The notes beneath the pieces are model-generated. The model was not told the DNA's origin, ran no database searches, and saw only the letters and a program-made list of their open reading frames with translations. 64,000 nt of DNA. Source: an uncultured Planctomycetota bacterium. Lineage in GTDB: Bacteria; Planctomycetota; B143-G9. Of the stretch, positions 8,150 through 59,212 are shown piece by piece. Location of the stretch: assembly GCA_964571525.1 (NCBI GenBank), contig CAZNBY010000001.1, positions 90,329-154,328 on the forward strand. Direction: 5' to 3'. Positions within the stretch are counted from its first letter, which is position 1, and every line of letters starts with the position of its first letter. The translations under genes and the position numbers were made by a program.

Positions 8150-8269
8150 CTGATACCTCCAATGGCATTTTACGGCTTTCGCATCCTGCGGCAAAGAACT
8201 CTGTTTTCTACAGGATATTTCCTGTGGCCGCTTATGTTTACGGTGCTCCAAAAGCGTCAAATGTCTGGT

Positions 8270-8307
8270 AGGATTACATTAGACAATCATTTGACTTCTT
8301 GTATAAT
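8270..8307 (+). promoter_or_regulatory. Promoter with extended -10 (TGTATAAT) for the giant secreted protein gene
   Basis: ttagac-N17-TGtataat, -10 at 8302-8307; ATG at 8351 preceded by AGAGG. Confidence 0.4.
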
Positions 8308-8350
8308 GCTCTTAGAAGCTGTCCAAAGCCCCTTTAGAAGAGGCATAACT

Positions 8351-20091: not shown

Positions 20092-20102
20092 AGGAGAAGC
20101 CT

Positions 20103-21056: not shown

Positions 21057-21210
21057 AAGGTGGCTATGACAGGTACTAATGCTGTATCAAGCGAAAAGTC
21101 GTCTCTTAGCTGCATTGAGAGAAAAGGTAAATGATGTATTATTTGTTGTATTTGCATAATTTGTATATGCGATATTGCTGCATTCTCCACAATCAGGAGG
21201 CGATACACCT

Positions 21211-21816: not shown

Positions 21817-21821
21817 CCATA

Positions 21822-28356: not shown

Positions 28357-29219
28357 GCCGCGGTTTCAGCTCGCTGCTGAACAACACGACAAATCAGCCA
28401 ATGACTACCAAGCGGCTCGCACTGTCGGTGGAGATTCCGCTTGACAGGATATCGCCAAATCCATACCAGCCACGCCGAGAATTCGACGAAGATTCATTGC
28501 TCGACCTTGCAAAGAGCATTGAGCAAGATGGCGTCCTTTCACCGGTAATTGTCAAGAGGCATAACGACTCTTACATACTCGTCGCGGGTGAGCGCCGCTT
28601 CCGTGCCGCCCAATTGGCCGGTCTTACGCGAATACCCGCAATTGTGCGCGATGTTACAGAACGCGAGATGCTCGAGCTTTCCATAATTGAAAACATACAG
28701 CGTGAAGACCTGAATCCTCTTGATAAGGCCATTGCTTACAACGATCTGCTAACAAAATTCAGCATGACACAGGAACAGGTCGCCGAGCGGGTCGGGCAGA
28801 AGCGCTCGACCGTCGCAAACTTCATCCGCCTTCTCAACCTGCCGGAATATGTGCAACAAGCGCTGCGCGAGGAAAAGATCTCGATGGGGCACGCCCGTGC
28901 TATCCTCTCATGCCAAGATGCTGACCGTCAAGCCCAACTATGCAAAATGGCAATTGAAGAAGACATGTCGGTGAGGCAGGTCGAAAAGCTCTCTGGCATC
29001 GCTCAGGCATCGCCCGCGCAATTGGTCGAGAAGACTGAACCTGCGCCAAAACCTCCAGCAGAGCAGGGCATCGCTGAGGTTGAGGACTTTTTGCGCCGCT
29101 TCTTTGGCACAAAGGTAACTCTGAAGCATAACAAGGGGCGCGGCAAGATTGTTATTGACTACTTCAGCGTTGACGATCTGAACCGCATACTCGCGATCCT
29201 CGAATCTACCAACAAATAA
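28338..29219 (+). CDS. parB: Chromosome partitioning protein ParB/Spo0J
   Basis: ParB motifs (GLGRG-like N-terminus, GERRFRAA, ENIQREDLNPLD), HTH; overlaps parA by 19 bp. Confidence 0.9.
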   Translation: MANRSLGRGFSSLLNNTTNQPMTTKRLALSVEIPLDRISPNPYQPRREFDEDSLLDLAKSIEQDGVLSPVIVKRHNDSYILVAGERRFRAAQLAGLTRIPAIVRDVTEREMLELSIIENIQREDLNPLDKAIAYNDLLTKFSMTQEQVAERVGQKRSTVANFIRLLNLPEYVQQALREEKISMGHARAILSCQDADRQAQLCKMAIEEDMSVRQVEKLSGIAQASPAQLVEKTEPAPKPPAEQGIAEVEDFLRRFFGTKVTLKHNKGRGKIVIDYFSVDDLNRILAILESTNK

Positions 29220-41234: not shown

Positions 41235-43388
41235 GTGCAAATGGAATTTGGAGCCTCGCACCTTGCCGCGATTCTGTTCTTCGCCCTTATACCTGTTCTG
41301 ATATATCTGCTCTTCAAGCGCAGATACAGAAGGCAGGAACTGGGTACAATGACCATTCTTCTTCGCGCCTATCGCAAGATTGGCAAACTGCTTCGAATAA
41401 AAGAGATGATCTTACTTGTGCTTCGTACTGCGGCAATGCTCGCATTTCTTGCCGCGCTCCTGCAACCGCTTTTGTCTAAGGGGGCGGGTGACCGCAAAAC
41501 CCACCTTGTTTTCGCTTTCGATTCATCTCTTTCAATGCGCATGAAAGTCGGCGAGACAAATCGCTTTAAGCAAGCCGTCGAGCACGCGAAGAGCACAATT
41601 GAGAGTTCGGGTCGCAATACAACCGTCTCGGTTTTTGTTTTCGACGACAAATGCCGTCCACAAGGCAGCAGCTTCATGCCAGTTACCGACGCGCTTCGGC
41701 TGCTTGACTCCCTATCCCCCGGATTCGGCGGAACAAATCCTTTTTCAATTGCTCGCCCGTTGCTTGATGAGGCAAAGCGGGCAGGCGAAATCAATGCGCG
41801 GTGCGAAGTTTTTGTGCTTTCGGATTTCGCGGTAAATTCGTGGACATCTGGTGACGGCCTTCGAGAGGCCAGCGCGAAGGAGCGTTTCACTGAGCTTTCT
41901 GATATATCTACACTTACATTTGTGGATTGTGCGCTTGGACATAAAAGCAACCGCGCAATTAATTCCATACGCCCGACACGCGGCACATTTTGTGTCGGCC
42001 TCGACACAATGCTTCACGCCGCTGTTTCATACTCATCACCTACAGGCGGCGAGACTGCTGTTGTATCGCTTGAGCGCGATAATGAGGCTTTTGGGCAAAG
42101 ATCTGCAGATGTAGCCGCTGGTGAACAGGTTACATGCGCTTTTCCTGATCGCCCACTTGACGAAGGCCCCCATTACTATCGGGTCTTTGTTGAGCCAGAC
42201 GAGCTTGCGGAGGATGATCAGCGTTTTCTTGCGGCAGATGTGCGAAGGAAGATTGATGTGCTGATTGTGGACGGTCGCCCTGATGCAGAGAAGTATCGTT
42301 CTGCTTCTGGATTTGCTGAAACCGCGCTTGCGCCTTCAGAGCTTCGCGATCTTTCACCACTTGCGCCGCGGGTAATCTCTTTGGCTGATCTTGAATCCGA
42401 TAACATCTCTCTCCCTTCAGTCGTTATACTTTGTGACCCGCCAGCACTTTCCAAACGAGCAGGGGAGTTGCTCGCAAAATTCGTCGCTTCAGGCGGTGGA
42501 CTTCTTGTAGCACTTGGGCAATCTGCGCGGCTCGATTTGATTAACGAATCGCTTGGAGGCAAAACGGGTTTTCTGCCAGCAACCCTCGTTTCAGCTCATT
42601 CAGGTGGCGACAACGACTGGCTCGGTATTGACAGACTGAACCTCCCTGAACCCTTAGAGGGTATGGGAGCGCTGTGGAAATCTGGTATGAAGCGGTTGAA
42701 GATATTCTCTTTTGTAGAGGCAACACCGCATGAGGATTCCATGGTGCTGCTGGCTCTTTCTGGCGGCAAGCCATTGCTAATATCCCGCAGTTTGGGAAAG
42801 GGCAAGTGCATGTTGTGGACTTCATCCTTCGACGGCGAGTGGACAAACCTGCCTGCATTGCCAATGTTCCCGCCCCTTTTGCACGAGCTTGTCTTCTTTC
42901 TGACCGAAAACGAGCGCGAGCGCTTAAACTTGACCGTTGGTGAGAGCATCAACCTCGCATTGCCTCTATCGGATATTGGCGGGGCTGCGACCTTATACCC
43001 ACCTGAAGGCGATGAACTTGAACTTCGTCCAACGCTCGACGGTGAACCGAGGATCGAATACGGCCCCCTTACCACCCCCGGCATCTACCGTTTACAGCTT
43101 GCATCAGGAAGACTGGTGCTGCTTGCAGCAAACCCCCCGCACGAGGAAAGCGACACAGAGCCACTTACAGAGCGGGCTTTGCGTAAGCTGCTCGATGGGG
43201 TCTCTTTCAAGCTCGCCTCTATAAAATCCGCCGATTCTGTCGCTGATGAAAGACCAAAAGACCTTGTCCGTCTGCTGATTCTTATTGCGCTCGGCCTGCT
43301 AATTCTTGAAACAGTGCTTGCTTCTATCTTCAGCGCACCGCCAAAGACCGTCAATCTCGACTTTTCATCTGGGGCATTCGGCAAATGA
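41235..43388 (+). CDS. BatA-like protein: N-terminal double-TM domain + von Willebrand factor A domain + C-terminal TM
   Basis: N-terminal hydrophobic pair with RRYRRQ; vWA MIDAS motif LVFAFDSSLSMR. Confidence 0.6.
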   Translation: MQMEFGASHLAAILFFALIPVLIYLLFKRRYRRQELGTMTILLRAYRKIGKLLRIKEMILLVLRTAAMLAFLAALLQPLLSKGAGDRKTHLVFAFDSSLSMRMKVGETNRFKQAVEHAKSTIESSGRNTTVSVFVFDDKCRPQGSSFMPVTDALRLLDSLSPGFGGTNPFSIARPLLDEAKRAGEINARCEVFVLSDFAVNSWTSGDGLREASAKERFTELSDISTLTFVDCALGHKSNRAINSIRPTRGTFCVGLDTMLHAAVSYSSPTGGETAVVSLERDNEAFGQRSADVAAGEQVTCAFPDRPLDEGPHYYRVFVEPDELAEDDQRFLAADVRRKIDVLIVDGRPDAEKYRSASGFAETALAPSELRDLSPLAPRVISLADLESDNISLPSVVILCDPPALSKRAGELLAKFVASGGGLLVALGQSARLDLINESLGGKTGFLPATLVSAHSGGDNDWLGIDRLNLPEPLEGMGALWKSGMKRLKIFSFVEATPHEDSMVLLALSGGKPLLISRSLGKGKCMLWTSSFDGEWTNLPALPMFPPLLHELVFFLTENERERLNLTVGESINLALPLSDIGGAATLYPPEGDELELRPTLDGEPRIEYGPLTTPGIYRLQLASGRLVLLAANPPHEESDTEPLTERALRKLLDGVSFKLASIKSADSVADERPKDLVRLLILIALGLLILETVLASIFSAPPKTVNLDFSSGAFGK

Positions 43389-45229: not shown

Positions 45230-46342
45230 CTATTCCTCTGACTTTTCTGCATCGTTCTTCTTGGTGCGATTCTGTGGCTTATCACCTGTTTTAGTCTTAA
45301 TCGGCTTTTTGTTACGAAGTTCTTCAAGCATCTTTGCTGATTGGCGAAGATCCTCTACATAATGGGCTTCGGCGGCGTTTTCAGCCGCAATTCTGCGCTT
45401 TTCAGCATAGTTCTCATATTGACCCTCCGCCCAATCAAAGGCATCCTCATGGCTGATTGTGCCCGTTCCATCAAGCACCGGCAGTTCTGTATCAATCAGA
45501 AACTTATCAAGATATACTTCCCAATCGTGCATTCTTATGTTCTGCCGCCTCATCGCACGAAATTCGGCTTGATCAAGAAACATGACTGTTATGCGGTTAA
45601 GTGTATCTATCTCCTTTTCATCAAGGTAATTCTTCGCGGTCACTATATCGCGCTTCAGCACTTTTTCGCCCTTCCATGAGGTCAAGCCCATATTCGGCTT
45701 ACTTGAATCAGCGCGCTGTCTGACTATCTCCGCAGCGGTCATTCCTGTTGCAGCATAATGCATCTTGTTCTGCATCGTGGCAAAAAACATCTGGGTCTCG
45801 CGTTCACCCTCCATATAGTCGCATGCAAGTGCAAAAATCTCACGAATGCGCTGATATACGCGCGCTTCGCTCGCCCGAATGTCCCTTATGCGCGCAAGCA
45901 GTTCGTCGAAATAGTCAACTATACCAACTCTGCCCTTCAACCTCTCATCGTCAATAACAAATCCCTTGACAATATATTCACGCAACCGCGCAGTCGCCCA
46001 CTGGCGGAACTTTGTCGCGACCGGCGATTTCACTCGATATCCTACCGCAAGGATCATTTCAAGACTGTAATGCTGTATCTTGCGTGTTATCTTCCGTTTA
46101 CCCTCTAATCGAACTATTAAGTAATCCTTAACAGTTGCCTCTACCTTCAACTCACCCTCAGTATAGATGTTCCTCAGATGGATGTTGATGTTTGGAATCG
46201 TTGTTTGGTACAATTCTGCAATCTGGTTCTGCGTCAGCCATACAGTGTCGCCATCGAGCATCACTTGTATGTGACTTCTTCCGTCTTCAGTCTGATAGAC
46301 GACTATCTCGCCACCAGGACGCGGAGCATCCATTTGATTCAT
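45230..46342 (-). CDS. RhuM-family protein (virulence/genomic-island-associated family)
   Basis: Characteristic N-terminal block VVYQTEDGRSHIQVMLDGDTVWLTQNQIAELYQTT...HYSLEMILAVGYRVKSPVATKFRQWATARL. Confidence 0.7.
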   Translation of the reverse strand: MNQMDAPRPGGEIVVYQTEDGRSHIQVMLDGDTVWLTQNQIAELYQTTIPNINIHLRNIYTEGELKVEATVKDYLIVRLEGKRKITRKIQHYSLEMILAVGYRVKSPVATKFRQWATARLREYIVKGFVIDDERLKGRVGIVDYFDELLARIRDIRASEARVYQRIREIFALACDYMEGERETQMFFATMQNKMHYAATGMTAAEIVRQRADSSKPNMGLTSWKGEKVLKRDIVTAKNYLDEKEIDTLNRITVMFLDQAEFRAMRRQNIRMHDWEVYLDKFLIDTELPVLDGTGTISHEDAFDWAEGQYENYAEKRRIAAENAAEAHYVEDLRQSAKMLEELRNKKPIKTKTGDKPQNRTKKNDAEKSEE

Positions 46343-46623
46343 GATTCACCTCAATGAGTCTATATTACGCCATCATTCAACAACGGCAAGCGACTTAGAT
46401 GTCTACCGCTGCTTTTGGTTCGACACTTCGCGGCTCATGTCTGGGCATAAACACGGCTATTCGCGACGGTTTCTTATCTTGTGATATCTATTGGGTTACA
46501 TCAATAACGCGCAGGTATGTATAGAGGGCGAATCACTTCGATTGGATGTCATTCTGTCAGGGAAAATTCGAGGAATAAAGGCAAAAATTAGTTCGAAATT
46601 GAAGTTGTTGTGACCCGTTGCGT

Positions 46624-48072
46624 CTATTTCTTCGGCTTGTCCGCCTTGCCATCTTCGTCGCTAATCATATCGAATATTGTAAAGTTGCCCATATCCGGTT
46701 CGTCTTTCCGTTCTGGTTTTGTCTGGGCAACAGGATTGCGGAGTTTGCGGTTTGTTCCGTTTGTCTTAGGGTCGGCATCTGGCATCTTGTCGGCTCCCCC
46801 TCTGAAAAACCCTGTCGTGCCTGCCGCTGCACTGCTCTCATCACCATTGCGGTGTACATAGTCGAAGTCAACAAATTCCTCAAGCTTCTCACGCTTTTTC
46901 AAAGGTTCGCCGGTTGCTGCGGTGGGCATGAACTCAAACACATCCGGTTCTATGTCCTCCACAAAAGTGTCCTCCTCCTTTGCGTGCTGCTGGGGTTTTG
47001 GTTGAGGGTTACTTTCGGGCGCTTGTCTTTCCTCAACTATTGTGGAGGCGGCAACAGCTTGTTTGCGCTCAGGGCCAAGCACAAGAAGGTATGAATAACT
47101 GCCTCCTGCACAGAATAAGGCGATCGCAAGCGTAACGGGAAACGCAAACGACAGCATAAGCGCCGCAATGAACAAATAACCTGCCGATGGTATGCGTTTT
47201 ATTCCGTATCTATCTATCGGCGATGTGTTTGTGTTGGCGTTCAGCCTCGTGGCAAGGTTGTTCGCAAACGAAGAGGGGAGAATGCTGTCATCAGATATCA
47301 CAGCCACACAATCGGCAAGAAGGTTGTCTTTGCCGATAACCTCCAACTCGAGCCTTGTTCCCATCACAAGCGACGACGAATCCAAGGCGCGCTTCACGGC
47401 AATCTTCCATACCGGAAAAAAGATAAACCAGAACACCAAAATCGTTAGAACTAACCATAGAGCAGCTTGGCTGAATGCCTTAAAAGCCCTTTCGCTTATC
47501 ATCGTGTAAAACTGCATTGCCAGTTTGCGTGGCGATCCACCCATGCGCTCGGTGTGTGGCACCCAAAGAAAGAAGTAGAAAAGCACAGCTAAAACTACCA
47601 GAATGTTGAACACAAAGGTGAAAAACAGCACGATGTACAACGCAGGAAATACCCAGATAGGCAGTTTTGAGAGCGTAAATAGATAGACTATTCCGGTTTG
47701 AAGCATGTAGATTACAAAGAACCCGCCGATGAAGATAAACGGGGCAGCAAGGTATGTGAAAGGCGCTGATAAGACAGCAGAAAAGAAGGTCTTTTCGCTG
47801 TTAGGCGTTATAAGCGCGTTGTTAACATCAAAGGCAATCGAGGTAACTCCCCATGTCAATAACAGGAAAAGAAACGACTGACCGAAAAGGCCGATGGGGA
47901 ATTCACCAGTGGGAGAGCCCGACTTGAGCGAGCGAAGCAGAAGCAAAACGGCAATTTCGAGTATTATCACCGAGACAGCAAACGCAGTAAAAAGGGCGGA
48001 GGGCTTAAACAGCACCTTCGACGCCTCGAGCGTCTTGAAGAAGTCTATCTCTGTCCGCGGTCGTAATGTCAA
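46624..48072 (-). CDS. Polytopic membrane protein with charged disordered C-terminal tail (hypothetical)
   Basis: Multiple hydrophobic segments; C-terminal Glu/Lys/Pro-rich region; no recognised family. Confidence 0.45.
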   Translation of the reverse strand: MTLRPRTEIDFFKTLEASKVLFKPSALFTAFAVSVIILEIAVLLLLRSLKSGSPTGEFPIGLFGQSFLFLLLTWGVTSIAFDVNNALITPNSEKTFFSAVLSAPFTYLAAPFIFIGGFFVIYMLQTGIVYLFTLSKLPIWVFPALYIVLFFTFVFNILVVLAVLFYFFLWVPHTERMGGSPRKLAMQFYTMISERAFKAFSQAALWLVLTILVFWFIFFPVWKIAVKRALDSSSLVMGTRLELEVIGKDNLLADCVAVISDDSILPSSFANNLATRLNANTNTSPIDRYGIKRIPSAGYLFIAALMLSFAFPVTLAIALFCAGGSYSYLLVLGPERKQAVAASTIVEERQAPESNPQPKPQQHAKEEDTFVEDIEPDVFEFMPTAATGEPLKKREKLEEFVDFDYVHRNGDESSAAAGTTGFFRGGADKMPDADPKTNGTNRKLRNPVAQTKPERKDEPDMGNFTIFDMISDEDGKADKPKK

Positions 48073-48085
48073 AATGCCTGTCTTT

Positions 48086-48844
48086 CTAACTCAAGTCCTT
48101 CTTTTGTGCGAGTTTGTTGTAGATAATCAAATCGTCAACACCGTTATACAGGCCCGAGGAGAGCACCAGCAAAACCTCGTCACCAAACGAGTGAAGGCGC
48201 AGATTTCCCTTTGCCATGCTTAGTTCTAATGTGCCGTTACCACCGATACTGAACGAGTCGCCGAAATACTTCGCAACTTTGTGAAGATAATAGAACGAAT
48301 TAGAGATCATCTCTGCATCGAATTCCGTTGGGCATTGGGCTGCAAGAAGCATTGCATCGCGGGAGAAGATGAATGCGGCGATAATCTTTCTTTGGCGGAA
48401 CACATCCTCAAGCGCTGGCACATACTCCGAGTCAGCAAATCTTCGCGACGATGGAGCAGGGGCGGGGGCCACTTTCTGTGCGCGTATTTTAGAGCCGTGT
48501 TCTACCACTTCCTCAACCGTCTCTGATGTTGTCGTCTCCTCGTTCGTCTCGCGCACTTCCTCAAGCATTTCGGTGCGCTTGTCGGGCTGAGACCCTCTAA
48601 CAGGGCGCGGCATGCCGGTGTTATCAACATCCATTATCGAGCCGCACTTAGAGCAACGGAATCGAATACCGGGCTTCATGCTTCGCGCATCGAACATCGC
48701 TCCACATGCAACACATGCGATAGAGCGACCGCCCGGCACCGTCAGATACATAGAACAACCGCGGCACTTAATTCTTGTGCCCGGCTTCAGCTTTTCAACG
48801 CTGTAATCCCTGTTGCATTCTGTACAGGTTATGATCTTTGCCAT
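48086..48844 (-). CDS. Tandem MJ0042-type zinc-ribbon protein with C-terminal roadblock/LC7 (MglB-like) domain (tentative)
   Basis: Two ribbons (MAKIITCTECNRDYSVEKLKPGTRIKCRGCSMYLTV; IACVACGAMFDARSMKPGIRFRCSKCGSIMDV); C-terminal alpha/beta segment assigned to roadblock fold from pattern only. Confidence 0.4.
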   Translation of the reverse strand: MAKIITCTECNRDYSVEKLKPGTRIKCRGCSMYLTVPGGRSIACVACGAMFDARSMKPGIRFRCSKCGSIMDVDNTGMPRPVRGSQPDKRTEMLEEVRETNEETTTSETVEEVVEHGSKIRAQKVAPAPAPSSRRFADSEYVPALEDVFRQRKIIAAFIFSRDAMLLAAQCPTEFDAEMISNSFYYLHKVAKYFGDSFSIGGNGTLELSMAKGNLRLHSFGDEVLLVLSSGLYNGVDDLIIYNKLAQKKDLS

Positions 48845-49005
48845 TTCGTCTTTTGTCCGTTATTTACGCACGAGGGGAATCGCGCGCGGGGGAAGGCTGG
48901 GTGTAAAAAAGTCAACCGTATAAGCAAGTGATTCGAACGAATCAAGTCTGCACAATATATATGATTGCGCTTATTCTGTCAAGTTTCACGCTTTGCGTGC
49001 ATTCT

Positions 49006-51231
49006 TTACGAAAGAAACGAGTCGAGCACACCTATCAGCGCGCCGCTTACTCCCTGCTTTGTAAAGTCGAAGTCGGTGCGCTTCTTTGTCTCGTCAATTC
49101 CATACTTACCAAGCGCAGTGCCGACTTTCCAGCTAAGCGTCCCTTCCCGATACAGCACTGCAACACGATGGCGGCGAAACTTGACAAGTGCAAGAGATAA
49201 AGCATCAATTTCAAGGTCCTCAAGCGACGGATCAGGCAATCCAATTATCACGGCACCCATCGCGCGGTCGAGTATGTTTTCTGCCTCAAAAGAGTCCATT
49301 TCGTCGTAGGTCATGCCAATCACATAAAGCGTGTTCTCAATATCGCCAGCGAGTCGCGTTAACAGGCAGTTGTCGTTGTTTGTTAAAGACACCGTTGCGC
49401 CAGTAAGATTTGAAAAATAGTCTGAAAGGTCATGCACATTGCCCAATACGATTATACACAGAACATTTGCGCGCGAGTAGAACGCCTCAGAAAGAATCCT
49501 GCCTGCCTTAGAAAGCGCCATCTCTCGCGCAACAGGCGAGTTTTGAAGTCGGCTTGCGAACTCCTCCCTGGCTTCTGGCGTTAAAATCATCCCGCTTATC
49601 TTTGCAAGTTCGACCTGCATCATCTCAACCACATCGGGCGGGAATCGTTGTATCAAGCGCGGTGCTTTGGGCTCCTCTGCTTTCTCGACAACAGCAGATT
49701 CGGGCTTCTTTTCCTCTACCTTATCATCCTCTTCAACCTCTTCTTGGATGACAAACTTCGGTACATCATTCACAGGATCATCGTCAAACAGCTCTTCTTC
49801 GTCAATCTCTGGCTCATTTGCTTTCTGTTCGATTTCGATTTCAGGTTCCGGCTGTGACTTTGGCTGTTCGTTGTATTGAAACTGCCTTACATCAACTTCA
49901 TGTCCTTGTGCAAGCGTTTCAGATACAGGTTCTTCAATTTTGCTGACGGGAATCGTTACCGTCTCGTCGGCATCAGCATACGAAGGAGTTTCGATTTCTT
50001 GCTTGCCTTGCGGTTCTTGCGCAGGTTGAGCAACTTCTGGCACAACTGACGGAGTTTGAGAAGGCTCTGGCTGCCATGCGGGAGCCTGCGGTTCAACGGC
50101 AGATTGAGATTGCGTTTCTGTTGATGGTGTCTGTGCTGCATCAGGCGCGGTTGCCGGTGGTTGAGAAGCCGAGGCAGCAGGTTTGTTGGCCGCCTGCCGG
50201 GCCGAGCGACGGTTCTGAGCAGGTGTCGGCATACCTTCAATGACCGACTTCACTCGTTCAAGCTCGTTGCCGATCCACTTTATGCTGTCTTCGACCTTGC
50301 GGACTATAAGCGATGCCTCTTCAATGTTCTCGTCTTCAAGCATCTTTTCGCCGTTTGCGATCATTGTCTCGCACTTGCCTACCGCATAGGGTATATACTT
50401 CTGCGCACCCTTTTCGATAAGCGCAGAAAACGCGGATTTGTGTCCGTCAAGCTCGCTCTTTATGGTCTGTTTGCGCGACACAGTGTAGGTGTCGAGCTTG
50501 CGCGAGAATTCGAGCAGCATGAACATCTGCGAACGCTGAATGTTCTCAGCACGAAGTTGCTCACCCTCTATGAATTCGAACCTCGCGCCAGTCGCTTTTA
50601 CAAGGTTGTATATTGACTGAACTCCCTCGTCCATCTCGTCGCGTGCGAAGGACATCACGCCTTTGCGAAACCATATCTGTGTTACAGAGGGGCCGGATAT
50701 AATGCGCAGAAGTCCAGTTCGGTTTGTCGTATTGAGAAGCTGCACAATGTCAGAGAACTGGCGTGGGTTAAACCGCCCGATAAGGCTCGCCTCAGAAAGC
50801 ACATCCATTCGGGTCGAACGGTTCAATACTATCTGTACCTTCAGCCTTAAAAGCTCATTATTGACAGGCAGTTCGAGGTAGTCATCGGCACCAGCGTTGA
50901 CAGCCTTTTCGAGTGCCGCTGCGCCCTCATCATACCCAACTAACAGCACGGGCAGGTTGCGCAGAAAGTGAGATCTTCTCACTTCGCTTGCAAGTTTGTA
51001 GCCATCGAGTTTTGGCATTGCAGTAGCAGCGATGAGAAATTCGAAACGCTCTGAGAAAAGACAATCGAGCGCGGTTTGACCATTGAGCGCTGTGCGCACA
51101 AGAAAGCCGTACGCTGATAGCGAGTGCGATGCAGACCCTAACCAAGCCGCATCGTCTGTCGCTAATAGAAGACGAGAGGATGAGTTACCGTTGACTATCA
51201 TGTTGTGCATATTATAGCGATAACCTTGCAA
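49006..51231 (-). CDS. Atypical receiver-domain protein with DUF4388-like domain, long Pro/Gln/Glu-rich disordered linker and C-terminal alpha/beta domain
   Basis: Receiver-like N-terminus has acidic pocket (LLLATDD) but phosphoacceptor position reads FLIAATAMP; DUF4388-like block TGLLRIISGPSVTQIWFRKG; about 250-aa low-complexity linker. Confidence 0.5.
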   Translation of the reverse strand: MQGYRYNMHNMIVNGNSSSRLLLATDDAAWLGSASHSLSAYGFLVRTALNGQTALDCLFSERFEFLIAATAMPKLDGYKLASEVRRSHFLRNLPVLLVGYDEGAAALEKAVNAGADDYLELPVNNELLRLKVQIVLNRSTRMDVLSEASLIGRFNPRQFSDIVQLLNTTNRTGLLRIISGPSVTQIWFRKGVMSFARDEMDEGVQSIYNLVKATGARFEFIEGEQLRAENIQRSQMFMLLEFSRKLDTYTVSRKQTIKSELDGHKSAFSALIEKGAQKYIPYAVGKCETMIANGEKMLEDENIEEASLIVRKVEDSIKWIGNELERVKSVIEGMPTPAQNRRSARQAANKPAASASQPPATAPDAAQTPSTETQSQSAVEPQAPAWQPEPSQTPSVVPEVAQPAQEPQGKQEIETPSYADADETVTIPVSKIEEPVSETLAQGHEVDVRQFQYNEQPKSQPEPEIEIEQKANEPEIDEEELFDDDPVNDVPKFVIQEEVEEDDKVEEKKPESAVVEKAEEPKAPRLIQRFPPDVVEMMQVELAKISGMILTPEAREEFASRLQNSPVAREMALSKAGRILSEAFYSRANVLCIIVLGNVHDLSDYFSNLTGATVSLTNNDNCLLTRLAGDIENTLYVIGMTYDEMDSFEAENILDRAMGAVIIGLPDPSLEDLEIDALSLALVKFRRHRVAVLYREGTLSWKVGTALGKYGIDETKKRTDFDFTKQGVSGALIGVLDSFLS

Positions 51232-51333
51232 TTTGCAAACACCTTGACAACATGCGCTTGCAACAGCGCATGCGCCGAAAATTAGACAAAATCTGTGTAT
51301 CGAATTGTGTCAACAGGCGTATAATACTAATGT

Positions 51334-52929
51334 ATGGGGCCTAAATCGCCTATTACTATCGCGTTGGTAACGCTTTTGTGCGTTATCGCGGTGCAGTGTT
51401 CGTTTTACCGCTTCGCAAGCGCTTTCGAGTTCGATTGGCGTGTCTTTGTGCGGGGCAATGAACGGGCGTTGCTGCCTTCCGCGCCCTCCTCATTCGACAT
51501 TCCCTCACAAGGTCTTAGTCTGACACCACAGTGTTATTGCCGAATTCTTTCGTTTAACGGAACAGCAAACGACATTGTGCGCGACTCGGTTCTGACTATT
51601 GCCACAAAAGACAAAACCGCCCCCACATCGGATCAGTGGCTTGCATACGCACTGATGCAGAATGACTTTCGCCGCCCCCCGATTGCCGGTCTTGACAGAA
51701 GCGGAGCAAATGGCCTCGCACTGCTCTTCGCTCTCAACTCAGCACCTGATCGCGATATGCTGCTTGATTCGCTCGATATGGCAAGGCTCGTAAAGTGCGA
51801 CCTTATCCCTGCCTATCTATATTCATTGGGCGCGTACGGAGACCGCATCAAAGAGGCAAAGTTCAACGCTCTCGCCTCTGCGGTATCGCGTGATGACAGG
51901 GTATTTCTATACGCAATTGCGGCAAAGTACCCCGACCTTTTTGGCGAGTTTCTGCGCAAGGCGGTGAAGGAATCCCCACCGTCCGAGTCTGCCATCGCCC
52001 TTCTCGCAATCTCAAAGGCTGCCCTTCCCATTGGGCAGGAAGAGCTTGCCGAGATAATCCGCAAGATACTTCTCACAAACGACTACTGGGCAATCATGCA
52101 CGCTGCGCTGGCGATGACAGCAATATATGATCCCTTCAGCACGCGCTTGTTCGAGAACTTTGTAACCAGCGACGACCTTGCCCTCGCCTCTTGTTGCGCC
52201 TTGGCAATTGGCGCAAACCTGCCTGCAGTTGATGTCGCCCGCTGGTATGGCAATGAGGGGCTTCAAGGTGTGGTGCGCGGTCATCTTGTGCTCGGTTGCG
52301 CAAAAAGGGAGGGCGCTGAGTTCGATGCTCTAATTGACGCCGCACTATCATCCTCAGAGGCAGTTTTGCGTGAACTTGGGGCAATCTCAGTGGGTCTGCG
52401 TGGCGAAAGGCTTTTTAGATTGAACGCCCTGTTTCAGGATGCGTCTTATGAAGTGAGGGCGTGCAGCGCAATTGGCGCGGGATTCCGACGCGAACGCTCG
52501 ACCTTTGGAGTATTGAAGAGCTTTGTGCAGGATAAGCATCATGAAGAGCTTACCGCCATCGCCTCGTTGTTGCTCGGTGCTCGTCCGTCCGATGCAGCCG
52601 CGCGATTGCTAACAGGTGTTGATGAGTACTTGTACGAACGCGAGCGCGGCTCTGCTTTCGTCGCGCTTGGCGCAGTTTCAAAGCAGTTATTCAATGAGGC
52701 TGCACCACGCCATCTTAAATCGGCGAAAACACCATATCTACGGCGTATGATTGCAATCGGCGGGCTTCTTACCGGCGATTCGCGCTGGCTTGTTGAACTT
52801 GACAAAGCTCTGTCTGAATATGCTGAATACCGCCCATTCGGGCATCCGGTCGCGCTTCGTTTCGAGGCGCTTTCTTCGCTTGTAAACGACCCGTTCGACT
52901 ATCTGCTTGAATATTGTTGGGAAAGATAG
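51334..52929 (+). CDS. Secreted helical-repeat hypothetical protein
   Basis: Signal-peptide-like N-terminus MGPKSPITIALVTLLCVIAVQC; alpha-helical repeat composition. Confidence 0.4.
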   Translation: MGPKSPITIALVTLLCVIAVQCSFYRFASAFEFDWRVFVRGNERALLPSAPSSFDIPSQGLSLTPQCYCRILSFNGTANDIVRDSVLTIATKDKTAPTSDQWLAYALMQNDFRRPPIAGLDRSGANGLALLFALNSAPDRDMLLDSLDMARLVKCDLIPAYLYSLGAYGDRIKEAKFNALASAVSRDDRVFLYAIAAKYPDLFGEFLRKAVKESPPSESAIALLAISKAALPIGQEELAEIIRKILLTNDYWAIMHAALAMTAIYDPFSTRLFENFVTSDDLALASCCALAIGANLPAVDVARWYGNEGLQGVVRGHLVLGCAKREGAEFDALIDAALSSSEAVLRELGAISVGLRGERLFRLNALFQDASYEVRACSAIGAGFRRERSTFGVLKSFVQDKHHEELTAIASLLLGARPSDAAARLLTGVDEYLYERERGSAFVALGAVSKQLFNEAAPRHLKSAKTPYLRRMIAIGGLLTGDSRWLVELDKALSEYAEYRPFGHPVALRFEALSSLVNDPFDYLLEYCWER

Positions 52930-52982
52930 ACCCTTTCTGGCGTCTAATAGACATCTCGGGGTATTTTGTGATGGAGATTCGT

Positions 52983-55520
52983 ATGAAAAAGCTATTGTTC
53001 GCTATTGCCGTTGCGGTTTGCCTTGCCATCTCGTTTTCGACCAACGAGGTCGGTGGCGAGATGCCCAATGTAAGCCAGCTTCTTTCAGACCGCGCAGCCA
53101 ATTTCAGCCCCACGCCGACGCCCCCGCTCGACTTAAACGAGCGCAGTTGGGAACGCTGGTGGCGTGGTAACCGCGCACCGTTGCTCGTTGACCTTACACC
53201 CGCATTCAAGGCACCGGTGATTGTTGACGGCCAGCCCACGCGCACACCCACAAGCTACGAAGTCTTCCCGTCAAAAAAGCCTAAGTCAATTGTCTCAGAA
53301 GACAAGGTCAATACGCTGCAGATTCTTGTGTTGCTCGGTTACGGCGGCGACTTCAAAGAGATAACACGCGAGATGGCTTTGACAGAGCTTGAAGCCCGCG
53401 GAGATAAGGCTCTTGACGAGCTTATTGAAATTGCGTCGGGCAGACAAGTGCTTGCGCCCATCGCCGGTATGTCGAGCCGCCAGCTTCGCAACTACGCCGT
53501 GCTCGCCTTAGGCGAAATCAAGTCCCCTAAAAGCTTCGATGCGCTCGTCGAGGCATTCAATAAGGGAGAGCAAGAGACTCAGTTCTTCGCCGCTATTGGT
53601 TTGGGAAGGCTTGGAGACAAACGCGCGGTCAAGGTGCTTACAGAAAATGCCGGTGCGCGCAACCAGTTCCACAGCCCCGCCGTCTGCCTCGCGCTCGGTA
53701 TGCTTGGTGCGTTCGAGGGTTTCGACTTTATGAAGCAGACCTTTCAGCACGGAGGCGCAAACGAGGAGCGTCTGTTCGCGGCGCTATCTCTTGGCATGCT
53801 CGGTGCAAAAGACCCGCGCAAGACACTTATCGAAATTGTTAAAAATGGCAGCGACCCACTTGAAAAGGCCCTTGCCGGTTTTATTTATCTGTCTTTCTGC
53901 GAACCAAAGTCAAACGAACCCGCCGCTGTCGCCTCGCTGCTTGAGATTAACGACGACTTCACCCGCGTGATTACGCTAATGGGCATGGGTATATTGATGT
54001 ACCGCGATAATCTCGATAGAGTTTTCGATATAGCGAAGAATATGGAGACCACGCCCGAAGTCGCAAAAGCTGCGATGCTGATGCTCGCGATGAGCAACTC
54101 AAAGGACGGCAACACGCTTCTTGTTAAACTGCGCGATTCACTGCAAGACGAGCTTAAGGCCGCCGCCGAGTTTGCGCTCGACCTGATGGAGAATAAAAAG
54201 CGCGCTAACATACTTGAAAACTGGTCGCTCGTAAAGGACAAACAGATCCGCCTGCTCATGCCATTTGTCTTGGTGCGATATTTGGGCGAGCCCGCTGTTG
54301 TGAACATGGACCGCGCGGTCAAGTTGGTACACGATTACAACCCGGGCTATCTCGCTCTTGCCTATGGATGGGCGTTTGAGGTCGGCAAACCCGCACCGAT
54401 TTCCAAGGTGCTTACAGCAGAGAAAGTCGAGCATCGAGCCTGCGCAATTGCCGCACTCGCCGTTTCACGCACAAATGTCACCGTTGACATGCTTACTAAA
54501 TTAGGCGTTCCCGACGGCCCCGAGCAGATGGCACTCAACCTATCGCTAAAGGCAATCGCGCCCAATATCATTCTCAAGTTCTTCCGCGACAACCCCCAGC
54601 GCGGCAATCCCCGTGTATGTGTTGGCATAGCCACAGCACTTGGCGGGCTGCAATGCGAGGGCGTGGAAGACGAGCTTGACCAATACATATCCTTCTATCA
54701 CCCTGATGTGCGATGCTACGCCTACCTTGCGATGGGAAGGCTTGGCACAAAGGCCGCTGCAGATCGCCTTATCGGCAGATATGGTGCTGAAAAGCATCCG
54801 TTCGCACTCGGCAACCTTATCCTCGCTGCGGGTTTTCTGTTAAGGCAACTGCCGCAGGATAAGGATATGTTAGAGATCGTTCGGGGCGGAATGTACAACA
54901 CAGCGCATGGCGAGGCACGCGCTTACGCTTCGTTGGCATGGGGCGTGTCGCACGATATCAATCGCTTCGATATGATTGGCAGCATATTCGGCACCGACCG
55001 CGACCCGCGCGTAATGTCGGCAGCGGCTCTCGCCTTTGGCCTGTCTGAGCACGAAAGCTCTGTCTTCTCACTGCGCCGTGCGCTTGAGGTTAAATCATAC
55101 AAACAGGTGCGTGAGTTCGGTTGTTTCGGCCTCGGTGTGCTTAAGAACCGCGACACGCTCAATTCGCTGCTCGATATGGTGAAGGATAAGGATAATGATG
55201 TGCGCATAGCCGCCACGGTCTCAATTGGCGCAATGCGCGACAACGCCTGCAAGGGCGTGGTAAAACCGCTTGCCGAAAGCGATGGCAGCATGAGCGTGCG
55301 CCGCCTTGCCTCGGTCGGCCTTATGCTGCTTGAGGACGGATACGGTTTCGAATGCTTTATAAATTCATTCAAGGGACGCGGCGACGAGGCCATACGCGAG
55401 ATGGGCTGGGTAGAGCTTACCGAGGTTTCGAACCTTTATATGCCGGTAGGTTTTAAGATTGATGACTACCTGCAAGACCTTGCCATTCCCGAGGAAGCCG
55501 AAGAAGGCACAAAGAAATAG
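52983..55520 (+). CDS. Secreted HEAT (PBS-lyase-type) repeat protein
   Basis: Start ATG 52983 (GGAGA RBS, signal peptide MKKLLFAIAVAVCLAISFS); many repeats of A-x-x-ALG-x-IG/LG pattern. Confidence 0.6.
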   Translation: MKKLLFAIAVAVCLAISFSTNEVGGEMPNVSQLLSDRAANFSPTPTPPLDLNERSWERWWRGNRAPLLVDLTPAFKAPVIVDGQPTRTPTSYEVFPSKKPKSIVSEDKVNTLQILVLLGYGGDFKEITREMALTELEARGDKALDELIEIASGRQVLAPIAGMSSRQLRNYAVLALGEIKSPKSFDALVEAFNKGEQETQFFAAIGLGRLGDKRAVKVLTENAGARNQFHSPAVCLALGMLGAFEGFDFMKQTFQHGGANEERLFAALSLGMLGAKDPRKTLIEIVKNGSDPLEKALAGFIYLSFCEPKSNEPAAVASLLEINDDFTRVITLMGMGILMYRDNLDRVFDIAKNMETTPEVAKAAMLMLAMSNSKDGNTLLVKLRDSLQDELKAAAEFALDLMENKKRANILENWSLVKDKQIRLLMPFVLVRYLGEPAVVNMDRAVKLVHDYNPGYLALAYGWAFEVGKPAPISKVLTAEKVEHRACAIAALAVSRTNVTVDMLTKLGVPDGPEQMALNLSLKAIAPNIILKFFRDNPQRGNPRVCVGIATALGGLQCEGVEDELDQYISFYHPDVRCYAYLAMGRLGTKAAADRLIGRYGAEKHPFALGNLILAAGFLLRQLPQDKDMLEIVRGGMYNTAHGEARAYASLAWGVSHDINRFDMIGSIFGTDRDPRVMSAAALAFGLSEHESSVFSLRRALEVKSYKQVREFGCFGLGVLKNRDTLNSLLDMVKDKDNDVRIAATVSIGAMRDNACKGVVKPLAESDGSMSVRRLASVGLMLLEDGYGFECFINSFKGRGDEAIREMGWVELTEVSNLYMPVGFKIDDYLQDLAIPEEAEEGTKK

Positions 55521-55589: not shown

Positions 55590-56996
55590 TCAGAACTTGA
55601 TGTTGGCAAGGAAGTTATCAACCTCGGGTATGCCGCCCTGGAAGACAAGGTAACCATTTGAAGGCTCGCCCTCGGTGATATCGTGGCAGATGGGGTTCAA
55701 CATGATCTTCTTAACTTCCTCGCGGTCCTCTGTCTGGCCAAGTGCCCAGCCGAGCTTCATATAGGCCGTCTCGGGCAGCATGTTCGCGCACTGCACAACG
55801 CCCAGCTCAAGAAGGTCGCGCCCCGTATCGTACACAAACATCTGCACAAAGCCCCACAGCGTCTGCACGGTCATATAAATATGCATGCCAGAGTCAACGG
55901 CGCGCTTAAGCGCGGGATTGAGCTTACGGTTCACATGCCCAAGACCCGTGCCAGCTATGATAAGTCCCTTGTAACCGTTGTCGCGCAACGAGTCAACAAG
56001 GTCGGGGTCCATGTTCGGGTAATAATATAGTATCGAGACGCGGTCGTTAAAGGTCGGCATGAGCTTCATCTTGCGGCTCTTGTCGCGCCTCTTGTAGTCG
56101 TTCTGTATTGGCTTTATCCAGTTAGGCGACACCATGCCCAGCGGCGTATCACCAATCGTGCGGAATGTAGAACGGTATGACGAGTGCATCTTGCGCACCC
56201 TTGTGCCCCTGTGCAAAAGGTCGTACTGGTCGCTTGTCGGGCCGAACATGCAAACCATCACCTCGGCAAAATCGCTCAATGCGGCGGTGCGAACAGCGTT
56301 GACCAGATTTATCGCCGCGTCGGAAGAGGGTCTGTCGCTCGACCTCTGCGAGCCCACCAACACCACCGGTACGGGCAGGTCTTGGCACATATATGTCAGA
56401 ATCGAGGCCGAATAGTGCATTGTGTCAGTCCCGTGGCCGATCACAATACCATCAACATCGTTCTGTTCTATTTCGTTGTAGATCTCTTGCGCGATGACCT
56501 TCCACTGCACCGAAGACATATCTTCAGAGAATATGCCGAAGATTTTACGCGTTCTCAAATTGCATATATCGGCAAGCTCTGGCACAGCGCTGTAAAGCTC
56601 ACCGGGTGAGAATGCCGGTATAACGGCACCGGTGCGATAGTCAAGGCGCGATGCGATAGTTCCGCCTGTGCCGAGCATGACAACATTGGGGCGGTTTGGC
56701 GAGTATGGGAACTCTTTTTCTGGTATCTTGTACTTGCCCTCTTTGAAGCCAGTTTCGCGAATATCAATTATGCTATTGACGGCGACACCGGTGTTGTAGC
56801 CCGTCGGCAGCTTCAACACAAGGTAACCATCTGGCGATTGCTCGGCGCGGGGCAAAATGATACCGACAAAGGTGCCTTGCATAGCGCGCACAACAACATC
56901 GCTCCAGACCTTAACGCCGAAGCGCTTCATGCACTCTATCGAGTCGCCTTTGTAACCTTTGTACAGCTCTTTTTCAGCTTGAGTTATCGTTGTCAC
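55590..56996 (-). CDS. L-asparaginase-fold protein with GatD-like N-terminal domain (Glu-tRNA(Gln) amidotransferase subunit D-like)
   Basis: Asparaginase motifs TGGTIAS and HGTDTM; about 100-aa N-terminal extension (GYLVLKLPTGYNTGV) resembling archaeal GatD; start set at GTG 56996 with GGAGA RBS. Confidence 0.6.
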   Translation of the reverse strand: MTTITQAEKELYKGYKGDSIECMKRFGVKVWSDVVVRAMQGTFVGIILPRAEQSPDGYLVLKLPTGYNTGVAVNSIIDIRETGFKEGKYKIPEKEFPYSPNRPNVVMLGTGGTIASRLDYRTGAVIPAFSPGELYSAVPELADICNLRTRKIFGIFSEDMSSVQWKVIAQEIYNEIEQNDVDGIVIGHGTDTMHYSASILTYMCQDLPVPVVLVGSQRSSDRPSSDAAINLVNAVRTAALSDFAEVMVCMFGPTSDQYDLLHRGTRVRKMHSSYRSTFRTIGDTPLGMVSPNWIKPIQNDYKRRDKSRKMKLMPTFNDRVSILYYYPNMDPDLVDSLRDNGYKGLIIAGTGLGHVNRKLNPALKRAVDSGMHIYMTVQTLWGFVQMFVYDTGRDLLELGVVQCANMLPETAYMKLGWALGQTEDREEVKKIMLNPICHDITEGEPSNGYLVFQGGIPEVDNFLANIKF

Positions 56997-57191
56997 GACA
57001 TCTCCACTGTTGGGTGATGAACGGGGGCAAACCGCCATTCTACCGGCCGTTAGGGCGCGCGCAACTAAAAGCGGGGGCGGGGAAAGGGGGGAAGTGCAGC
57101 TTCCTTTGTTGACAATATAAAATCAACGCTAAAATACATTCATCAGCATGATTTCGCGTCGAAGGCTTTCTCGCACTACAGTTACGCTATA

Positions 57192-57253: not shown

Positions 57254-59212
57254 ATGCAGGCCAAAGAGACTAAGCTACAAGACATGATCGAAGGTACTAA
57301 GCAATATGTGGTTCCTCTTTTCCAAAGAACATACAGTTGGTCAGAAACACATTGGGAAACCCTTTGGAAAGACATCTGCGATATCTATGAGTCTGATTCG
57401 AGAAAGAGCCACTTCATTGGTTCTATCGTAAGTATGCAGACTACATCTGTACCGCAAGGTGTATCAAAGTTCCTTCTAATCGACGGGCAGCAGCGGCTAA
57501 CCACAATTTTTATCATCCTTACTCTCCTGCGGGACAAAGCGAATTCAAACAATAATACTGTATTTGCTGAAGAAATAGCAAACACATTGCTTGTTAACCC
57601 ATACAAAAAAGACTACGACTATTTCAAGCTCTTGCCTACACAACACGACCGAGACAATTATAAAGATCTTATTAATGGAACACTGTCAACCTCTAACAAC
57701 CGCATTTCTCGTGCATACCGCTATTTTGATAATAAATTAAAACAAACTGATTTTGACATTGAAAAGCTAAAATCAATTATTTCAAGTGACCTTTCTGTTG
57801 TCAGTATAACTCTCGACGCTGATGATAACCCATATCTTGTTTTTGAAAGCCTAAACGCAAAGGGAAGTCCTCTTACGCAGGCAGACCTGATCAGAAACTA
57901 CTTGTTCATGCGGATTCATGTTAATGACCAAAACGCAATTTTTGATAAATATTGGCATCCCATGCAAACAGCATTAGACGATAAACTCACAGAGTTCATT
58001 CGCCACTATTTAATGGATAAGGGAAGCGTTATTCGTCAATCTGATGTATATTTTACCATTAAGGAGGCGGTATCTGCTGACAATGTTATTGATTACATGA
58101 AGCAAATGCATATATATTCACAATATTATAGTCGCCTGCTTAATCCTGACGAGGAACCTGAATCGTCCATAAGAAAATATCTTAAGCGTTTGAATATAAT
58201 CGAGGTGACAACAGCATATCCATTTCTGCTTAGGATGTATAATTATTATGGATGCGGAACAATCAGTAGAAGTGATTTCGTCCAAATATTATCTACCACG
58301 GAGAACTATTTAATCAGGCGTCTAATTTGCCATGTCCCAACAAATCAGCTTAGTCGTATTTTCGCTTCTTTATACCCACAGATTAAAGGCATCGCTGGCC
58401 CTAATATACCAAAAGAATATGAGAGTCTTCTTGTAATGAAGCAATATCCACGAGACTCTGAGTTTCGCGCAAAATTTAAGGAATATAGATTTTACGCTGC
58501 TGGTGAGCGGGCGGCAAGGGCGAAATTGGTACTTGAATCAATAGAGAACAGCTTTGGGCATAAGGAACACATTGATTACAATAATGTTTCTATTGAGCAT
58601 ATCATGCCTCAGGTATTGACATCTGAATGGCGGAAGGACCTTGGTGATGAAGCACAAGATATACACAGCCTTTTGCTTCATACTATCGGCAACTTGACGC
58701 TCACAGCATATAATTCGAATCTATCAAATAGCGAGTATCCATCCAAGAAGAAGGTATATCTGCAGAGTCATCTTGAAATTAATAAGTACTTCGATGGTGT
58801 TGATGTTTGGAATAAGGAGAGCATCGAAAAGCGAGCTGATGTGCTGGCCGGAATCGCAATGAGAATCTGGCCATATTTTGGAGTTGAATTTTCTGAACAG
58901 AGTGTTACAAACACAAAACCGAAATCTGTTCGAATATTAGGTCAAATATTTGATGTCGACTCATGGCGAGATGTGCTTGAATGCACGATGAACACCGTTG
59001 CGGAGCTTGAGCCTGCGAAATTTAACCGGATAATCAGTAGCTACCCCCGATATTTTAGCAAGCATCAGGACAAGTTGAGATGCGTGCGGAAGTTAAGAAA
59101 TAACCTGTTCTTAGAGGTTAACCTGTCCGCGAACGACATTCAAAGATTATGCCATCAGGCGATTCAGAGCATCGAACTCACTAGCGACGAGTGGTCCGTC
59201 GATTATGAATGA
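57254..59212 (+). CDS. DUF262 (ParB-like NTPase) + DUF1524 (HNH/His-Me finger) protein, GmrSD-like type IV restriction candidate
   Basis: N-terminal DGQQRLTT motif; C-terminal IEHIMPQ ... GNLTLTAYNSN nuclease-like motifs; gene is conspicuously AT-rich compared with flanks. Confidence 0.7.
   Translation: MQAKETKLQDMIEGTKQYVVPLFQRTYSWSETHWETLWKDICDIYESDSRKSHFIGSIVSMQTTSVPQGVSKFLLIDGQQRLTTIFIILTLLRDKANSNNNTVFAEEIANTLLVNPYKKDYDYFKLLPTQHDRDNYKDLINGTLSTSNNRISRAYRYFDNKLKQTDFDIEKLKSIISSDLSVVSITLDADDNPYLVFESLNAKGSPLTQADLIRNYLFMRIHVNDQNAIFDKYWHPMQTALDDKLTEFIRHYLMDKGSVIRQSDVYFTIKEAVSADNVIDYMKQMHIYSQYYSRLLNPDEEPESSIRKYLKRLNIIEVTTAYPFLLRMYNYYGCGTISRSDFVQILSTTENYLIRRLICHVPTNQLSRIFASLYPQIKGIAGPNIPKEYESLLVMKQYPRDSEFRAKFKEYRFYAAGERAARAKLVLESIENSFGHKEHIDYNNVSIEHIMPQVLTSEWRKDLGDEAQDIHSLLLHTIGNLTLTAYNSNLSNSEYPSKKKVYLQSHLEINKYFDGVDVWNKESIEKRADVLAGIAMRIWPYFGVEFSEQSVTNTKPKSVRILGQIFDVDSWRDVLECTMNTVAELEPAKFNRIISSYPRYFSKHQDKLRCVRKLRNNLFLEVNLSANDIQRLCHQAIQSIELTSDEWSVDYE

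Follow-up and report, generated by a model that had tools for sequence, protein, structure and literature searches.

What does a G-domain fold without nucleotide-binding motifs do beside a roadblock protein? The question is raised by a locus in a 64-kb stretch of DNA from an uncultured Planctomycetota bacterium (contig CAZNBY010000001.1, positions 90,329–154,328; hereafter the window, to whose positions all coordinates refer). Pairs of a G domain with a roadblock or longin protein, such as MglA/MglB, Rag/Ragulator, Rab/Mon1-Ccz1, and the signal recognition particle (SRP) receptor, are among the oldest regulatory modules. Three adjacent minus-strand genes from the list of open reading frames (ORFs) are considered here. 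Gene A occupies 49006–51231 when read from a TTG (741 aa) and 49006–51210 when read from the ATG at 51210 (734 aa); the latter start is used in the public protein collection, which holds an identical 734-aa entry. Gene B (48086–48844, 252 aa) encodes two zinc ribbons, a linker, and a Roadblock/LC7 domain, and gene C (46624–48072, 482 aa) encodes a polytopic membrane protein with a charged tail. The predicted domain order in A is pseudo-receiver, PATAN, helical segment, disordered linker, and MglA-like pseudoGTPase. We consider it slightly better than even (a probability of about 0.55) that the A-B-C cassette encodes a nucleotide-independent version of the MglA/MglB-type G-domain–roadblock pair, which probably works together with two divergent exported HEAT-repeat genes.

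The G-like domain of protein A and the roadblock domain of protein B

Sequence searches with the C-terminal domain of A were blank throughout. No Pfam match at E ≤ 1, including any P-loop nucleoside triphosphatase (NTPase) profile, was obtained for the C-terminal domains of the six family members, and neither phmmer nor profile searches found a sequence match in the PDB. In addition, hhalign against Myxococcus xanthus MglA, with a sequence checked against the PDB, returned a probability of 0.07. The comparison of folds was therefore the sole route to identifying the domain. An AlphaFold2 (AF2) model of the last 220 residues, based on an alignment of six sequences, had a mean predicted local distance difference test (pLDDT) value of 88.6 and a predicted template modeling (pTM) score of 0.89. 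Its Ras/MglA-like part (49012–49467, minus strand) follows the order beta1-alpha1-beta2-beta3-alpha2-beta4-alpha3-beta5-alpha4-alpha5, as in the Ras fold, with a tight beta2-beta3 hairpin. The six-stranded sheet, the antiparallel beta2-beta3 hairpin, and the five helices that characterize the Ras-superfamily G domain were all present in the model. In the Foldseek search, MglA structures ranked first and accounted for nine of the 13 top matches; the best of these, 6h5b_A (E 7.6e-5, probability 1.00), was aligned across the whole 190-residue chain. The fold is preceded by an N-terminal extension (49468–49668, minus strand), in which helices were modeled at 11–22, 31–41, and 52–63 (model numbering). 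Two motifs lie in this extension, PRLIQRFPPDVVEMMQVEL, which is near-invariant, and LSEA[FY]YS.

The secondary structure of the model was mapped onto the family alignment. The P-loop GxxxxGK[ST] (G1) was absent from all six members, as were, at the mapped positions, DxxG (TxxGQ in MglA) after beta3 and [NT]KxD after beta5; the window protein has YDEMDSFE and YREG at these two places. Because a single residue joins beta1 to alpha1, the P-loop is, according to the model, deleted and not merely mutated. Apart from the two motifs of the extension, the best-conserved stretches were DSFEAENILDR, at the position of switch II/alpha2, and IDALSLALVK[YF].RHRV, at alpha3-beta5. The model and the alignment suggest that the domain is a class-i-type pseudoGTPase, in which the fold was retained, nucleotide binding was lost, and the switch-II face was kept as a binding surface.

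The neighboring protein B begins with two CxxC...CxxC zinc ribbons (48623–48835, minus strand; residues ~4–37 and 41–74), and the eight cysteines C7, C10, C27, C30, C44, C47, C64, and C67 were invariant in the family alignment. The zinc-ribbon profiles PF13717/PF13719 matched window B below threshold (E 0.0025 and 0.0048), and Zn_ribbon_4 was matched by all six members of the B family, with a best E of 4.8e-5. A weak profile match of the first ribbon to the zinc-finger domain of GltJ (AgmX) (7zok, E 0.028) was below significance and is treated as a lead, not as membership. The C-terminal domain of B (48104–48412, minus strand; residues ~145–247) was modeled with the order alpha-beta-beta-alpha-beta-beta-beta-alpha, and its structural matches were Roadblock/MglB proteins and also LAMTOR, Mon1, and AP sigma. 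The pLDDT of the AF2 model of B was 70 overall; in ten-residue blocks, it was 61–78 in the ribbons, ~40–55 in the linker (85–140), and 62–92 in the C-terminal domain. The Pfam profile Robl_LC7 (PF03259) matched five of the six members below threshold (best E 6.5e-4). For window B, the match had an E of 0.21 and 11.8 bits against a gathering cut-off of 23, and spanned profile positions 6–89 of 91. An invariant RRF in the linker, with PxP before it, is a candidate docking peptide.

A preliminary description of the locus, made from its sequence alone, had proposed a P-loop-less small-GTPase fold at the C-terminus of A, and two zinc ribbons with a roadblock-like fold in the next gene. Both proposals were borne out: the former by the AF2 and Foldseek fold match together with the missing motifs, so that it survived structure prediction, and the latter by the invariant cysteines, the order of elements, and the Roadblock/MglB structural matches. 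The same description had noted that the window lacks an MglA-like GTPase. A motif scan of ORFs of at least 100 aa in the 64-kb window and the fetched related loci indeed found no small P-loop GTPase, only ABC-type or unrelated P-loops; what the statement missed is that the MglA-like partner may be the C-terminal domain of A itself, with its best Foldseek matches in the PDB among MglA structures.

Conservation of the cassette and the other domains of its proteins

Relatives of A were collected by an exhaustive HMMER search of 1.84e9 representatives; a word-indexed search with full-length A had returned only A itself (low-complexity and receiver words). Six true relatives were found (P0010–P0015), and all other HMMER matches were receiver-only or generic REC-PATAN proteins. 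The B family comprised six proteins in 5.8e9 clusters. A metagenome scan gave two contigs, both already in the set. The related loci came from a Planctomycetota metagenome-assembled genome (MAG) from Guaymas (L007/L010, with the close relative L003/L004), a Planctomycetota MAG from Salar de Ascotan (L008), a Candidatus Brocadiia MAG (L009/L011), an ENA contig (L012), and a short JGI fragment (L013). Five lineages were distinguished, namely the window, L007/L003, L008, L009, and L012; four of the five are represented by Planctomycetota MAGs or contigs.

Four of the lineages have contigs that extend as far as C, and all of these keep the order A-B-C on one strand; the fifth keeps A-B, after which its contig stops. 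Identity to the window proteins was 43–46% for the N-terminal part of A, 36–46% for its C-terminal part, 35–41% (tblastn) or 36–44% (protein alignments) for B, and 30–32% for C. Six flanking genes of the window (RhuM, epimerase, a 274-aa ORF, BatA-like, GatD-like, and GmrSD) had no counterpart in any related locus, where C is followed by genes for acetate kinase, phosphotransacetylase, and pyruvate:ferredoxin oxidoreductase or by ATP-binding cassette (ABC) transporter genes. A-B-C is a conserved cassette of a small Planctomycetota clade, adjacent and co-oriented while its flanks change.

Two plus-strand genes diverge from gene A. The first (51334–52929, 531 aa) matched Pfam HEAT_2 below threshold and has a hydrophobic, signal-like N-terminus; the second (52983–55520, 845 aa from the ATG at 52983) matched HEAT_2 with an E of 7.4e-35 and has a signal-peptide-like N-terminus. 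Identity to the neighbors in the Brocadiia locus was 30% over 515 aa for the first and 45% over 846 aa for the second. According to tblastn, both genes are kept divergent beside gene A in L008, L009, and L012, i.e., in three of the four other lineages. The conserved unit is C-B-A plus the divergent HEAT pair, 46624–55520.

The preliminary description had drawn the module otherwise, as four co-oriented genes at 45230–51231, the fourth being a RhuM gene (45230–46342, minus strand, 370 aa). All four ORFs were found on the minus strand, the RhuM family was confirmed (Pfam Virulence_RhuM, PF13310, 6e-106), and C is a membrane protein as described. Of the proposed four-gene module, the A-B-C part stood, with its order kept across lineages at 30–45% identity. 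RhuM is outside the A-B-C set: it is separated from C by 281 bp, it had no tblastn match in any related locus, and it matches a stand-alone candidate defense family, so that its grouping by co-orientation did not hold. The limits of the module had to be moved as well, since the conserved unit runs on to the HEAT-repeat genes at 51334–55520.

Genes A and B are separated by 161 bp and B and C by 13 bp. A sigma-70-like promoter match (TTGACA-17-TATATT, 11/12) lies at 48954–48982 (minus strand) in the A-B gap; it is a consensus match only, which may not suit this phylum, and B and C might be transcribed separately from it. The terminator scan of the C-RhuM gap, treated as uninformative for this phylum, gave no convincing terminator.

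Two side observations concern the HEAT genes in the related loci. In L012, the two HEAT genes (2900–6700) are broken into many small called genes, and a frame change lies inside the receiver of the gene-A orthologue (7865–8762); these breaks are likely assembly frameshifts, which make the locus unsuited to fine inference. The HEAT genes of the cassette in L008 adjoin a gene for a receiver-sigma-54 activator and a KpsF-like SIS+CBS gene (132–3815, minus strand). A pair of the same two gene types is found in the window at 3858–7584 (minus strand), ~45 kb from the cassette; the correspondence with L008 is by gene type. The two pairs hint at an older, larger neighborhood, perhaps with a connection to sigma-54.

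The N-terminal part of A is a degenerate receiver (50836–51168, minus strand; residues ~15–125 of the 734-aa form), which matched Response_reg (PF00072) with an E of 4.8e-12 and 46.5 bits (curated cut-off 30.2), compared with 93–113 bits in other REC-PATAN proteins. In the alignment with Escherichia coli CheY, Asp57 is replaced by Ala, Thr87 by Gly, and Lys109 by Leu, and the N-terminal acidic pair (TDD) is retained. The equivalents of these three residues are Ser, Gly, and Ile in the orthologue from the Guaymas MAG; Cys, Cys, and Lys in that from the Salar de Ascotan MAG; and Asp, Gly, and Lys in that from the Brocadiia MAG. By this alignment, the window genome encodes a pseudo-receiver. Because the Brocadiia orthologue keeps Asp and Lys and the other orthologues vary, the ancestral protein probably had the phospho-acceptor, and several lineages, that of the window among them, have since lost it.

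The receiver is followed by a PATAN/DUF4388 domain (PatA_N, PF14332; 50491–50760, minus strand), matched with an E of 6e-11 and 42.9 bits (curated cut-off 25). The Pfam matches place REC at 22–132 and DUF4388 at 158–247 of A, with ~490 residues after them. The PATAN domain is ~45% identical to those of the orthologues, which carry precomputed PatA_N annotations; no solved relative of this region was found in the PDB. The next segment (50221–50490, minus strand) is alignable in all full-length orthologues and is called helical from its sequence. It is followed by a presumably disordered, unconserved linker (49669–50220, minus strand) with a composition rich in E, P, A, and Q; its length and sequence vary among the orthologues, and it is nearly missing in the 626-aa Brocadiia protein. 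A receiver-like N-terminus with an acidic pocket but without the phosphoacceptor Asp, Thr, and Lys, a DUF4388-like block, and a Pro/Gln/Glu-rich linker had all been recognized in the preliminary description, and agree with the Pfam matches, the CheY alignment, and the composition given above. On the question of a canonical phosphoacceptor, its reading applies to the window protein, which lacks Asp57, and does not extend to the Brocadiia orthologue, which has both Asp57 and Lys109.

In L008, gene A is broken in the linker by one in-frame TGA (9749–9751), with an ATG 12 nt further on (region 9749–9766). Its halves were called as separate proteins, a REC-PATAN protein of 335 aa and a linker plus G-like protein of 302 aa (P0013 and P0015). 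Either the gene is truly split where two modules meet, or the polished long-read assembly contains an error here.

Hydropathy indicates five or more hydrophobic segments in the first 335 residues of protein C; the charged tail behind them is poorly conserved and presumably disordered. No match to C was found in Pfam, NCBIfam, or the PDB. In the tail (46627–47067, minus strand), the motifs VDFDY and [YF]TIFD near the C-terminus were invariant in three lineages (the window, L007, and L008 orthologues) and are candidate docking peptides. The NCBIfam scan gave nothing specific beyond Pfam.

Proposed mechanism, known systems, and alternative explanations

The following mechanism may be proposed for the cassette. 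Protein B, probably dimeric, would dock through its roadblock domain on the “frozen” G-like domain of A, most likely on the switch II/alpha2 face with its most conserved stretch, DSFEAENILDR. We infer this docking because MglB contacts the switch face of MglA (PMC3199381) and a eukaryotic class-i pseudoGTPase binds a longin/roadblock-fold protein (PMC12490416). The motifs in the tail of protein C would hold the complex at the cytoplasmic membrane, and C may also link the complex to the exported HEAT-repeat proteins. The PATAN domain would act in output and recruitment, by analogy with cyanobacterial PatA-type regulators, in which PATAN is the output domain binding PilB1/PilC (bioRxiv 10.1101/2021.06.11.447907). 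Control, where any remains, would come from phosphorylation of the receiver rather than from GTP. Since the receiver of the window protein lost Asp57 and Lys109, which are kept in the Brocadiia orthologue, the complex of the window organism is probably a constitutive scaffold or landmark and not a switch. Candidate processes that it may organize are the positioning of envelope machinery, pili or secretion, and the site of division or budding.

More tentatively, the locus may represent an undescribed bacterial cell-organization system. In it, a G-domain–roadblock pair would have turned into a nucleotide-free, permanently engaged scaffold. Fusion of the MglA-like domain to a PATAN response regulator would have moved control from GTP to receiver phosphorylation, for which the Brocadiia orthologue may still be competent, and all control would then have been lost in the lineage of the window. 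Protein C, through its tail motifs, would couple PATAN recruitment in the cytoplasm to the exported HEAT proteins as a trans-envelope landmark. This would be the first prokaryotic pair of a class-i pseudoGTPase and a roadblock protein; taken as a whole, the scenario is possible but doubtful.

Comparison with known systems showed which parts of the cassette are new. The occurrence of PATAN genes near mglA and mglB homologues is already known (PMC4316618, which cites Makarova et al. 2006). What is new is that the G domain is covalently fused to REC-PATAN, that it has lost all nucleotide motifs, and that its roadblock partner carries zinc ribbons and comes with a dedicated membrane protein; our literature search found no paper linking pseudoGTPases with bacterial MglA-type systems. 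MglA of M. xanthus and Thermus thermophilus is a separate protein of 22 kDa. In A, by contrast, the G-like domain is fused to REC-PATAN and lacks the P-loop, DxxG, NKxD, and any detectable sequence similarity to MglA, whereas B differs from MglB in its two N-terminal zinc ribbons. These follow the same CxxC...CxxC pattern as the MJ0042-type ribbons of GltJ (AgmX) and ZitP, both polarity-related protein-protein modules; in Myxococcus, MglB is recruited by the zinc finger of GltJ, a domain similar to the ZitP ribbon that binds PopZ (PMC11135422). B, however, has a duplicated ribbon, which is part of the roadblock protein itself, and no GYF domain. PatA-type regulators (PatA, PixG, PixE, and LsiR) share with A a receiver and a PATAN/DUF4388 domain in one protein. 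They consist of two domains in the order PATAN then REC, whereas A has REC then PATAN, a degenerate receiver, and ~490–500 more residues.

The likeness to the RomR/MglB pair suggested in the preliminary description was retained in part. A receiver, a Pro-rich linker, and a roadblock neighbor are indeed present; the RomR side of the comparison is loose, because the RomR tail is unstructured and Glu-rich, without PATAN, whereas A has PATAN and a folded G-like C-terminus. RomR works with RomX, and no RomX-like gene was seen among the conserved neighbors. With the actinobacterial conservon CvnA-D, the cassette has the roadblock protein (CvnB) alone in common: the sensor CvnA resembles a histidine kinase, but C contains no kinase domain; CvnC is a DUF742 protein without an equivalent here; CvnD is a genuine P-loop GTPase; and the gene order and phylum differ. 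The closest eukaryotic likeness to A is the pseudoGTPase domain (psGD) of the class-i protein AAGAB, a motif-less G fold serving as a module for the roadblock/longin partners AP1/AP2 sigma (PMC12490416); Rag-Ragulator and Mon1-Ccz1-Rab7 resemble the A-B pair more loosely. All three are unrelated to the cassette in sequence and context, and the pairing of A with B is itself only predicted.

Several points weigh against a nucleotide-independent G-domain–roadblock pair. The A-B complex is deduced from separate models of the C-terminal domain of A and of B, and the fold assignments rest on AF2 models from six sequences each, with a pLDDT of 70 for the whole of B. With an hhalign probability of 0.07, the G-like domain has no sequence-level link to any GTPase, and its fold could possibly stem from convergence or from extreme divergence from another P-loop NTPase; the loss of nucleotide binding is read from the motifs. 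A bona fide MglA, with B as its regulator, may exist elsewhere in the genome. The family is rare, the synteny rests on five lineages, and the relatives are all MAGs or metagenome contigs, two of which (L008 and L012) have likely assembly errors.

The last-named possibility leads to the first alternative, which we regard as unlikely. B would be an ordinary MglB-type regulator of a real MglA-like GTPase encoded elsewhere, and the G-like domain of A a decoy that sequesters B; A would then inhibit or buffer an otherwise normal GTPase cycle instead of forming the center of a nucleotide-free scaffold. B does resemble MglB in its roadblock fold, the PATAN neighborhood of mglA and mglB mentioned above fits this explanation, and the contig, of which the inspected window covers 64 kb, is at least 382 kb long. 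Decoy pseudoenzymes are, moreover, a common theme. However, no ORF for a small P-loop GTPase was found in the window or the fetched loci, and B is strictly linked to A in every lineage, which would be expected if the G-like domain of A were itself the partner of B.

According to the second alternative, which we judge quite unlikely, the three genes are conserved neighbors without a G-domain–roadblock complex. A would be a PatA-like PATAN regulator that controls, e.g., type IV pili or secretion ATPases and uses its C-terminal domain for another purpose such as oligomerization, and B and C would be independent. PATAN alone suffices for output in Synechocystis PixE (bioRxiv 10.1101/2021.06.11.447907), and REC-PATAN proteins without a G-like domain are common. 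Nevertheless, two folds known as partners throughout biology stand here side by side and were kept at 35–45% identity while the flanks changed, and no pilus or secretion genes were found near the cassette in the window or the related loci.

A third alternative, that the C-terminal domain of A still functions as a nucleotide switch through a non-canonical binding site, is very improbable. The G-domain fold is preserved at high model confidence, and some GTPases tolerate unusual motifs, as does MglA with Thr in place of the G3 Asp (PMC3000849). In A, however, the P-loop appears deleted and not just substituted, no equivalent of G1, G3, or G4 is conserved across the six members, and no P-loop NTPase profile matched at E ≤ 1.

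Finally, that the four genes including RhuM form a module of a mobile or defense island is hardly credible, since the PADLOC match and slightly lower GC content of RhuM and a low-GC GmrSD gene 11 kb away stand against the absence of RhuM from the related loci (where acetate kinase, phosphotransacetylase, pyruvate:ferredoxin oxidoreductase, or other genes follow C), the lack of PADLOC matches to the three cassette genes, the 281 bp that separate C from RhuM, and the fact that no evidence of a tRNA, an integrase, or flanking repeats was found.

If the nucleotide-independent G-domain–roadblock pair is real, prokaryotes too reuse such pairs as pure scaffolds, in parallel with the eukaryotic AAGAB-AP sigma and Rag-Ragulator logic. 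The cassette would then offer a handle on the recruitment targets of PATAN, the origin of pseudoGTPases, and spatial organization in Planctomycetota, whose polarity and division machinery is, to our knowledge, poorly understood. Variation among the orthologues provides natural experiments, with one phospho-acceptor intact and the others dead, and one gene apparently split at the linker.

Genes around the cassette

The RhuM gene matched the PADLOC candidate single-gene defense family PDC-S05 (E 1.4e-143). Its GC content (0.466) is slightly lower than that of its neighbors, and it seems to have been inserted independently, with gene C on one side and the convergent epimerase gene on the other. 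PADLOC gave no match for A, B, or C, and a reading of the cassette itself as a defense system was rejected on these results together with the stand-alone family of RhuM. A GmrSD-type (DUF262/DUF1524) type IV restriction gene is located at 57254–59212 (plus strand); with a GC content of 0.398 against 0.49 for the window and strong PADLOC matches to Orf5 and HEC-06, it is probably a horizontally acquired defense gene.

The remainder of the window contains parA/parB at 27583–29219 and BatA/DUF58/DUF4159/VWA genes of the “aerotolerance operon” type scattered at 17857–22712 and 41235–43388. Both gene sets are consistent with a chromosomal region of a bacterium of the Planctomycetota-Verrucomicrobiota-Chlamydiota (PVC) group. 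A 1582-aa ORF at 7949–12697 (plus strand) had no Pfam match at E ≤ 1e-4. Between the HEAT pair and the GmrSD gene, the gene at 55590–57038 (minus strand) encodes a member of the asparaginase family whose N-terminal domain is of the GatD type (Pfam GatD_N, Asparaginase, and Asparaginase_C). GatD-type amidotransferase subunits are typically archaeal, and the gene is unusual for a bacterial genome.

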